DNA of 64,000 bases from Octopus vulgaris (Eukaryota), in NCBI GenBank assembly GCA_951406725.2, contig OX597823.1, forward strand, positions 86,180,001-86,244,000, in the 5' to 3' direction. The notes beneath the pieces are model-generated. The model made no database searches. It was not told the DNA's origin and saw nothing but the letters and a program-made list of their open reading frames with translations. The translations under genes were made by a program, and so were the position numbers. Positions 47,153 to 47,660 of the stretch are shown here, piece after piece; within the stretch, counting starts at the first letter, position 1, and each line of letters begins with the position of its first letter.

Positions 47153-47660
47153 TAATTAATCAATATAGGGTGGCAAAAAAAATTTTGTAGAATTCTTTTT
47201 GCCACCAGCGGCCTAGTGGGAAAAAAATTAAATAGTCATAAACCATTTTTAAGTTCAACATCACAATCAAGGAACGGCCATAATAGGCCATTCACCCACT
47301 AGAAATAACAGCCAAAAGCTTTAACCGCAAAATAACATCAATTCCGTAAACCAGGAGAAAATTAAAAAACATTTTTGCCACCCTATATTGATTAATTATG
47401 AATTTTCTGGTTAATTCCGTAATGGAATCGGCGGCTTATATTTATTTGCTGCCGATAAATTTGGCGCGAGTGCGACGATTTCAAAATTTTAGGTCAGATA
47501 TTGCCGAGGCAGCAACGGGAATGCCTCGTGAAAAATATCTGTTCCGACTTGGCTATTTCTTACTGATGAATCTAAGGGCCTATGGTAGATTGGCTTGATT
47601 TAATTAATGTTATTTCTAGTGGGTGAATGGCCTATTATAGCCGTTCCTTGATTGTGATAT
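47153..47660. mobile_element. Rearranged copy of the 15.3-kb family containing the 5' half of its hammerhead
   Basis: 47153-47372 is the reverse complement of 15470-15680; atttctta CTGATGA atcta..tagat at 47555-47590. Confidence 0.75.

Follow-up and report, generated by a model that had tools for sequence, protein, structure and literature searches.

Two loci lying 32 kb apart in the window, which is the whole stretch of 64,000 nt analysed here, each carry one part of a hammerhead ribozyme, and the question was how these parts are related. An earlier note had taken them as complementary halves of one hammerhead, closing a circular or tandem unit of about 440 nt. The window is AT-rich animal DNA crowded with microsatellites, and its repeats resemble those of an octopus. 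The two loci, designated A and B, are not a functional pair but two of very many independent decayed insertions, and the complementarity of the halves that they hold is an accident of truncation and deletion. Both derive from a high-copy non-coding repeat of likely about 486 nt (the A/B family), which carries a predicted type I hammerhead with a long helix II and likely spreads as a non-autonomous retrozyme by borrowing the reverse transcriptase-endonuclease of Penelope-type retrotransposons (PLEs).

At Locus A (15286-15681), two inverted arms stand head to head and overlap by 3 nt at 15427-15429. The identity of the arms across the palindrome (15286-15574) is 92.6%. The following features were assigned, with T2 and T1 denoting the near and far ends of the repeat.

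15286..15429, minus strand: left arm, running from the basal 3' strand of helix II to GAAA, helix III and GUA, then through the 3' strand of helix I, which is intact, as far as T2 in (TA)n
15427..15681, plus strand: right arm, beginning in the internal loop of helix II, with a 3-nt microhomology at 15427-15429
15437-15441, plus strand: GAAAC of the right arm, with the predicted cut after 15452 and T2 at 15574
15575-15681, plus strand: tail of the right arm, followed by T1 in (TA)n
15440..15451, plus strand: helix III with a self-complementary loop, based on fold energies
15628..15664, plus strand: predicted 13-bp hairpin, stopping 17 nt short of T1

The 3' part of the hammerhead was confirmed on both palindrome arms; the left one (15403-15429, minus strand) has the complete 3' strand of helix I, of which the right one lacks 3 nt. 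Both arms appear to be truncated within helix II, and the truncation of the right arm lies just short of the long hairpin.

Locus B (47152-47658) is a second inverted pair, consisting of a minus arm (47152-47374) and a plus arm starting at 47372, again with a 3-nt overlap.

47152..47374, minus strand: left arm, 5'-truncated, 90.7% identical to 15466-15682 and ending at T1 (gattaattat) in (TA)n
47152-47259, minus strand: tail of the left arm, about 107-108 nt
47372-47374: 3-nt microhomology of the inversion
47372..47399, plus strand: start of the right arm, the last 28 nt of a preceding unit, identical to 15654-15681
47400..47554, plus strand: segment of the unit between T1, which it joins head to tail, and the ribozyme, based on contig depth and contigs crossing 47399/47400
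47555-47562, plus strand: helix I 5' strand
47563-47569, plus strand: CUGAUGA core, with N7 at 47567
47570..47605, plus strand: 5' side of the long helix II, based on the by-eye pairing of the loose end behind 47605 with 47582-47600
47570-47573, 47574-47581 and 47582-47600: basal 4 bp, internal loop and 19-nt 5' arm of this helix, followed by the apex
47609..47658, plus strand: remainder of the right arm after a deletion, ending at T2 in (TA)n

The remainder at 47609-47658 is 98% identical to 47310-47260 and 94% identical to 15523-15570, and an internal deletion of about 115 nt appears to have taken away the 3' half of the ribozyme. The 5' half was found at 47555-47569, as the earlier note had said, and the 8-bp helix I that it described consists of 8 Watson-Crick pairs. 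An overlap had been placed between 15453-15680 and 47371-47398; the 28-nt identity exists, but the coordinates were off by one (15654-15681 and 47372-47399). Of the statement that gattaatta fused to (TA)n terminates both copies, half holds: at Locus B the motif meets (TA)n on the minus-strand arm (47153-47161), whereas the copy at 47390-47399 runs into the next unit.

Contigs from four public runs, about 100 nt long, were aligned on positions 47150-47662; two runs were guessed to be DNA (X1, X3) and two RNA (X8, X9). The 47-kb stretch was present, whole or in part, in 20 of the 24 listed public runs, which come from 11 studies and several organisms. The aligned contigs numbered 11932 in X1 and 3993 in X3. 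The summed contig depth in X1 exceeded the depth of a single joint about ten thousand times, a ratio that stands for "very many" and not for a copy number. Two short motifs of the family gave 0 matches in metagenome contigs, and one of them gave 0 matches in prokaryote genomes and viral contigs.

These contigs showed the order of the pieces in other copies. In all four runs, contigs departing from the window at 47374 (32 in X1, 11 in X3, 4+1 in X8 and 1+1 in X9) led into the 3' strand of helix I and into helix III, so the hammerhead 3' half precedes the segment 15466-15681, as had been claimed. The junction 47399/47400 was also crossed by contigs in all four runs, with at most 28 letters on the short side of the crossing contigs (table 8, records 4, 12, 20 and 27; 23-28 letters in records 4, 20 and 27) as against the tool's 31-letter rule. 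The X1 depth across this junction was steady at 2.3-2.9 million, and that of X3 was lower (0.2-0.6 million). No departure at 47400 was present among the 24 of 176 loose ends listed. The segment from 47400 thus follows the gattaattat end in other copies too, and A/B units stand head to tail in DNA both in the window (47372-47399, then 47400) and in the contigs.

The break in the hammerhead had been placed at 47590. Departures from the window were instead found behind 47605 in all four runs (29, 23, 3 and 4 contigs in X1, X3, X8 and X9, respectively), and none was located at 47590 among the same 24 of 176 loose ends. Copies extending beyond 47605 add about 22 bases, which pair with 47582-47600: by eye, letters 2-20 of the loose end match 47600 back to 47582 in 19 consecutive pairs closed by a 6-nt loop. 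Four to five of the 19 pairs are G-U, and the letter changes in X8 and X9 preserve the pairing. At its far end, the X8 consensus of this loose end (3 contigs) matches 15427-15434, the start of the right arm of Locus A, exactly over 8 letters; the X3 loose end reaches 4 of those 8 letters, with one difference. None of the contigs in the four runs spanned CUGAUGA to GAAA, the GAAA box being reached by no loose-end consensus and seen in the window only, and the far ends of the loose-end consensuses differ from the window in helix III. The 8-letter overlap suggests that the ribozyme halves are linked via about 22 bases absent from the window.

Corrected in this way, the unit has a length of 486 nt, compared with 439 nt for the join proposed earlier, which omitted 47 nt; a unit of about 486 nt is the likely one. 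The idea of one hammerhead-bearing unit closing head to tail, with pieces at both loci, is retained, and so is the tandem junction, which exists in DNA; the proposed junction between the ribozyme halves and the length of about 440 nt are not. The joined hammerhead with a 5-bp helix II next to GAAA was not the form listed in other copies. Both the short helix II and the 440 nt arose because the word AGAT occurs on both sides of the join.

All six frames of the A/B unit pieces are interrupted. A 68-codon stop-to-stop frame (47392-47595) over the ribozyme 5' half had no Pfam match, and its candidacy as a gene was rejected as chance. The GC content of the family is below 50% (0.41 and 0.32). Folding of the circular unit, with the gap left unpaired, gave a z of -5.0 relative to 40 shuffles.

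For the A/B repeat, a type I hammerhead is predicted whose helix II is unusually long. Following the chain of pieces described above, helix II would consist of 47570-47573 paired with 15433-15436, an 8x8 internal loop and a 19-bp hairpin, about 68 nt in total. Among the 40 of 46 differences listed, only N7 (47567; T, A, C or G) varied within the core 47563-47569, and no variant fell in 47576-47605. Two helix I variants (47555 and 47562) change A to G, for which G-U pairing is allowed, and the T to C change at 47558 breaks a pair of helix I unless its partner changed too. Both versions of the helix III loop, UAUA in the window and UGCA in runs X1 and X3, are self-complementary. Alone, helix III barely folds (-0.2 kcal/mol), whereas with a second copy it pairs fully over 12 bp (-13.6 kcal/mol). 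Such behaviour has been described for dimeric animal hammerheads (PMC4209133, and PMC7229834 in its accessible part).

Some observations speak against the ribozyme. Position 17 is A in X1, C in X3 and G in the X8 consensus, and G would not cleave; many A/B copies are probably dead. The base pair 10.1-11.1 is A-U instead of the usual G-C. In neither model (the joined 60-mer or the circular unit) did the active fold have the lowest energy, and the active helices were absent from the circular fold with the 22-letter gap unpaired. Helix I, treated as a two-strand duplex, was equalled by 169 of 2000 shuffles and is weak evidence on its own. A relaxed hammerhead descriptor gave 6 hits in the window, compared with a mean of 0.02 (maximum 1) in 50 block shuffles, and the sole match of a strict descriptor with a short helix II was at 14105. 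Rfam reported no family at gathering score in the window, no hammerhead among the 150 of 384 weak matches listed, and no match at E up to 10 for the intact ribozyme at 14105. The short helix II drawn earlier (47570-47590) is a possible pairing in competition with the long hairpin and could be an off state.

The insertion scars at the two loci are alike. In each of them, one arm stops at T2 (the equivalent of 15574) and the other extends about 107 nt further to T1 (gattaattat). Measured from the predicted cut, T2 is 125 nt and T1 232 nt downstream, and each of these ends closely follows a predicted hairpin, the one before T2 stopping about 5 nt short of it. TA runs of 46-62 nt are present at all four ends of A and B, and across six such loci a TA run of 14-62 nt was found within 60 nt of 12 of 12 ends. 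One X8 contig has (TA)n before 47258, which is T2 again. In X1, at least 15 of 34 joints connect the two arms at breakpoints scattered over 47177-47368 (minus) and 47383-47609 (plus), each listed inversion joint being in one contig with a depth of 139-400. Scattered joints are as expected for many independent inverted insertions with truncations of their own. Three of the four arms (both of A and the right one of B) run across the cut site, which implies that the template was uncut there and was thus a religated circle or an uncleaved tandem RNA.

Two further families in the window show intact long-helix-II hammerheads together with the same scars.

39839-40361: family C palindrome, with (TA)n flanks and a tail of about 85 nt on one arm
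40090 (plus strand) and 40009 (minus strand): intact family C hammerheads, one per arm, with a 38-nt helix II, GUA and a self-complementary helix III
12418-12666 and 24863-25256: further copies of family C
13890-14626: family D partial tandem with a period of 504 and a short inverted arm
14105, minus strand: core of the intact family D hammerhead, with a 7-bp helix I and GUC
46062 (plus strand), 25445 (minus strand) and 9460 (minus strand): cores of the minimal PLE type, with a short helix II and a decayed helix I

The arms of family C differ by 7%. Helix II of family D consists of 4 bp, internal loops and a hairpin; the fold of its unit has a z of -5.5, with helices I and II formed, and its ends are located 149 and 265 nt past the cut. 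The long arm of family D starts within a 4-nt microhomology (14541-14544), and the predicted cut of the upstream unit is 14544/14543; the match has a coincidence probability of about 1% for one locus and was noticed post hoc with n=1. No blastn similarity of at least 30 bits was detected between the A/B family and families C and D, and the three families, without blastn similarity to one another, have the architecture alone in common. The hammerhead lies 125-150 nt ahead of the near end in each of them. By eye, a loose CCYTWAT-like motif, pyrimidines followed by a TA-rich part, recurs at their fixed ends (15560-15574, 15664-15681, 14610-14626 and 40345-40361) and may be a priming signal that they have in common. 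Around one of the minimal cores, the stretch 46012-46104 has an inverted partner at 45774-45868.

The way in which the copies lie within TA microsatellites suggests that the enzyme of a Penelope-type retrotransposon likely inserted them. According to the available portion of PMC8557442, PLEs are marked by a partial tandem, an inverted 5'-truncated copy, a tail at one end and (TA)n targets. The accessible text of PMC11167929 reports that the Poseidon PAc protein nicks both strands at AT-rich DNA, that a stem-loop about 90 nt beyond the hammerhead cut contains two internal sites from which reverse transcription starts, that the tail is the stretch between the two starts, and that insertion in vitro did not need cleavage. 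The A/B copies resemble the PLEs treated in these portions (PAc in PMC11167929; the Hydra and Naiad clades in PMC8557442) in the partial tandem, the inverted 5'-truncated copy, the one-end tail, the (TA)n target and ends near a stem-loop shortly downstream of the hammerhead. They differ in the tail, about 107 nt as against the 30-40 nt of published PLEs, in the lack of a reverse transcriptase (RT) or GIY-YIG frame in the unit, and in the hammerhead, which is not the minimal PLE type. Minimal PLE hammerheads (PMC4209133) share the CUGANGA and GAAA boxes and a palindromic helix III, but have a helix I of 4-5 bp (8 bp with a further extension in A/B), G10.1-C11.1 (A-U in A/B) and a helix II of 7-8 bp with a short loop (a region of about 68 nt in A/B). 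Scanning of 148 of the 202 window frames revealed neither a PLE protein remnant nor an ORF with RT and GIY-YIG, and the A/B unit contains no such ORF. The A/B element is not an autonomous PLE, and since its unit lacks a coding frame, the enzyme would act in trans.

Non-LTR retrozymes are a class already proposed to derive from PLEs and to be moved by them (accessible parts of PMC7229834 and bioRxiv 10.64898/2026.07.22.740005), and the A/B family likely belongs to it. As in the animal members treated there, the unit is short, non-coding, AT-rich and arranged head to tail at very high copy number; each unit would bear one type I hammerhead with a palindromic loop 3 suiting dimer cleavage, and the predicted fold is highly self-paired. 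The length is slightly above the 150-450 nt given in the available part of Cervera and de la Pena 2020 (PMC7229834) and inside the 51-972 nt in that of Li et al. 2026 (bioRxiv 10.64898/2026.07.22.740005). Unlike the helix II of 4 bp with a short loop in those parts of the retrozyme literature, that of A/B is about 68 nt with an A-U pair at 10.1-11.1; it is also longer than the 7-17 nt spacer of the core hammerhead descriptor in the accessible text of PMC8557442. The A/B copies are dispersed inverted insertions with PLE tails, for which the accessible parts of PMC7229834 and bioRxiv 10.64898/2026.07.22.740005 contain no description. The literature consulted held no report of cephalopod retrozymes or of such a long helix II in them, and supplements and repeat libraries may hold the family. 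In the Octopus vulgaris repeat annotation (PMC13282606), Penelope families are present and the word "ribozyme" is absent from the main text as available. The A/B family thus stands apart by its long helix II and by PLE-type scars borne on a unit of retrozyme size; the family itself may already be catalogued in repeat libraries or supplements.

By analogy with known retrozymes, tandem transcripts would self-cleave after NUH, probably as dimers, and the monomers may be ligated to circles. By analogy with PLE biochemistry, the PLE protein would nick both strands of a (TA)n target, and reverse transcription would have two internal starting points, 125 and 232 nt downstream of the cut, each behind a hairpin, with the stretch between them becoming the one-arm tail. 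The anatomy of the copies is that of two arms joined head to head over a 3-nt microhomology; the process giving rise to it would be two cDNAs that stop early.

Of the other explanations, the one that deserves most weight takes the pieces for 5'-truncated ends (pLTRs) of an autonomous PLE, the short head-to-tail unit being a minor by-product. Every insertion scar is PLE-like, judging by the accessible part of PMC8557442, and a far upstream region would be beyond the reach of the short contigs, none of which spans the stretch. In X1, however, the ribozyme is reached again within 163 nt of T1 at the depth of the family (lower in X3), no loose end at 47400 was found among the 24 of 176 listed, and the unit has neither an open frame nor a Pfam match; this explanation is considered unlikely. 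Still less credit is given to a DNA-level repeat (Helitron/Helentron-derived, fold-back or satellite) spreading without RNA, with the hammerhead as a passenger or relic. The strong 3' hairpin and the AT-rich ends would suit it, and Helitron/Helentron-derived or fold-back elements are also known to form tandem and inverted arrays. It fits poorly with scattered 5' truncation next to two fixed 3' ends, with core variation confined to N7 among the listed differences, and with a hammerhead 125-150 nt before the near end in three unrelated families.

That the 440-nt unit with a 5-bp helix II is a real or common form seems highly improbable. Its hammerhead looks like the textbook one, and the departures are known from 24 of the 176 loose ends; yet all four runs follow the window to 47605, with the listed departure there, the bases of the proposed helix II form the 19-pair arm instead, and the joined 60-mer favours another fold (-7.6 vs -5.0 kcal/mol). 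Least probable of all is that the palindromes are fold-back chimeras of the assembly or that a split ribozyme acting in trans between the loci was selected. Microsatellite-flanked palindromes do assemble poorly, but the arms of A differ by 7%, as do those of C, and many other inversion joints were present in independent runs. Given thousands of family contigs, two complementary fragments need no special cause, which argues against the trans-acting pair. The decayed non-autonomous retrozyme, moved by a PLE enzyme, is the preferred reading.

A broader proposition is advanced tentatively, our confidence in it falling slightly short of even: the genome would harbour unreported retrozyme families whose long helix II is missed by standard descriptors and Rfam, and the PLE RT would be primed from both target strands, at two internal sites, and copy ribozyme-processed or circular RNA, so that the scars record the mechanism. 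The long arm of family D, which begins at the cleavage site and includes one intact ribozyme, would be genomic evidence that the hammerhead cut set the template in vivo. As regards the mover of animal retrozymes and in vivo cutting by PLE-linked hammerheads, the accessible literature rests on co-occurrence and pLTR homology. Because the A/B family is abundant and combines fixed ends, a one-sided tail and scattered truncations, both questions are addressable by counting breakpoints in one assembly. The absence of Rfam hammerhead hits in the window suggests that surveys undercount long-helix-II motifs.

Apart from the hammerhead repeats, the window contains a DNA transposon unrelated to them: a DDE_1 transposase remnant at 5289-6125 on the minus strand (Pfam E 3.6e-13), which was the sole clear protein match among the 148 of 202 frames scanned.
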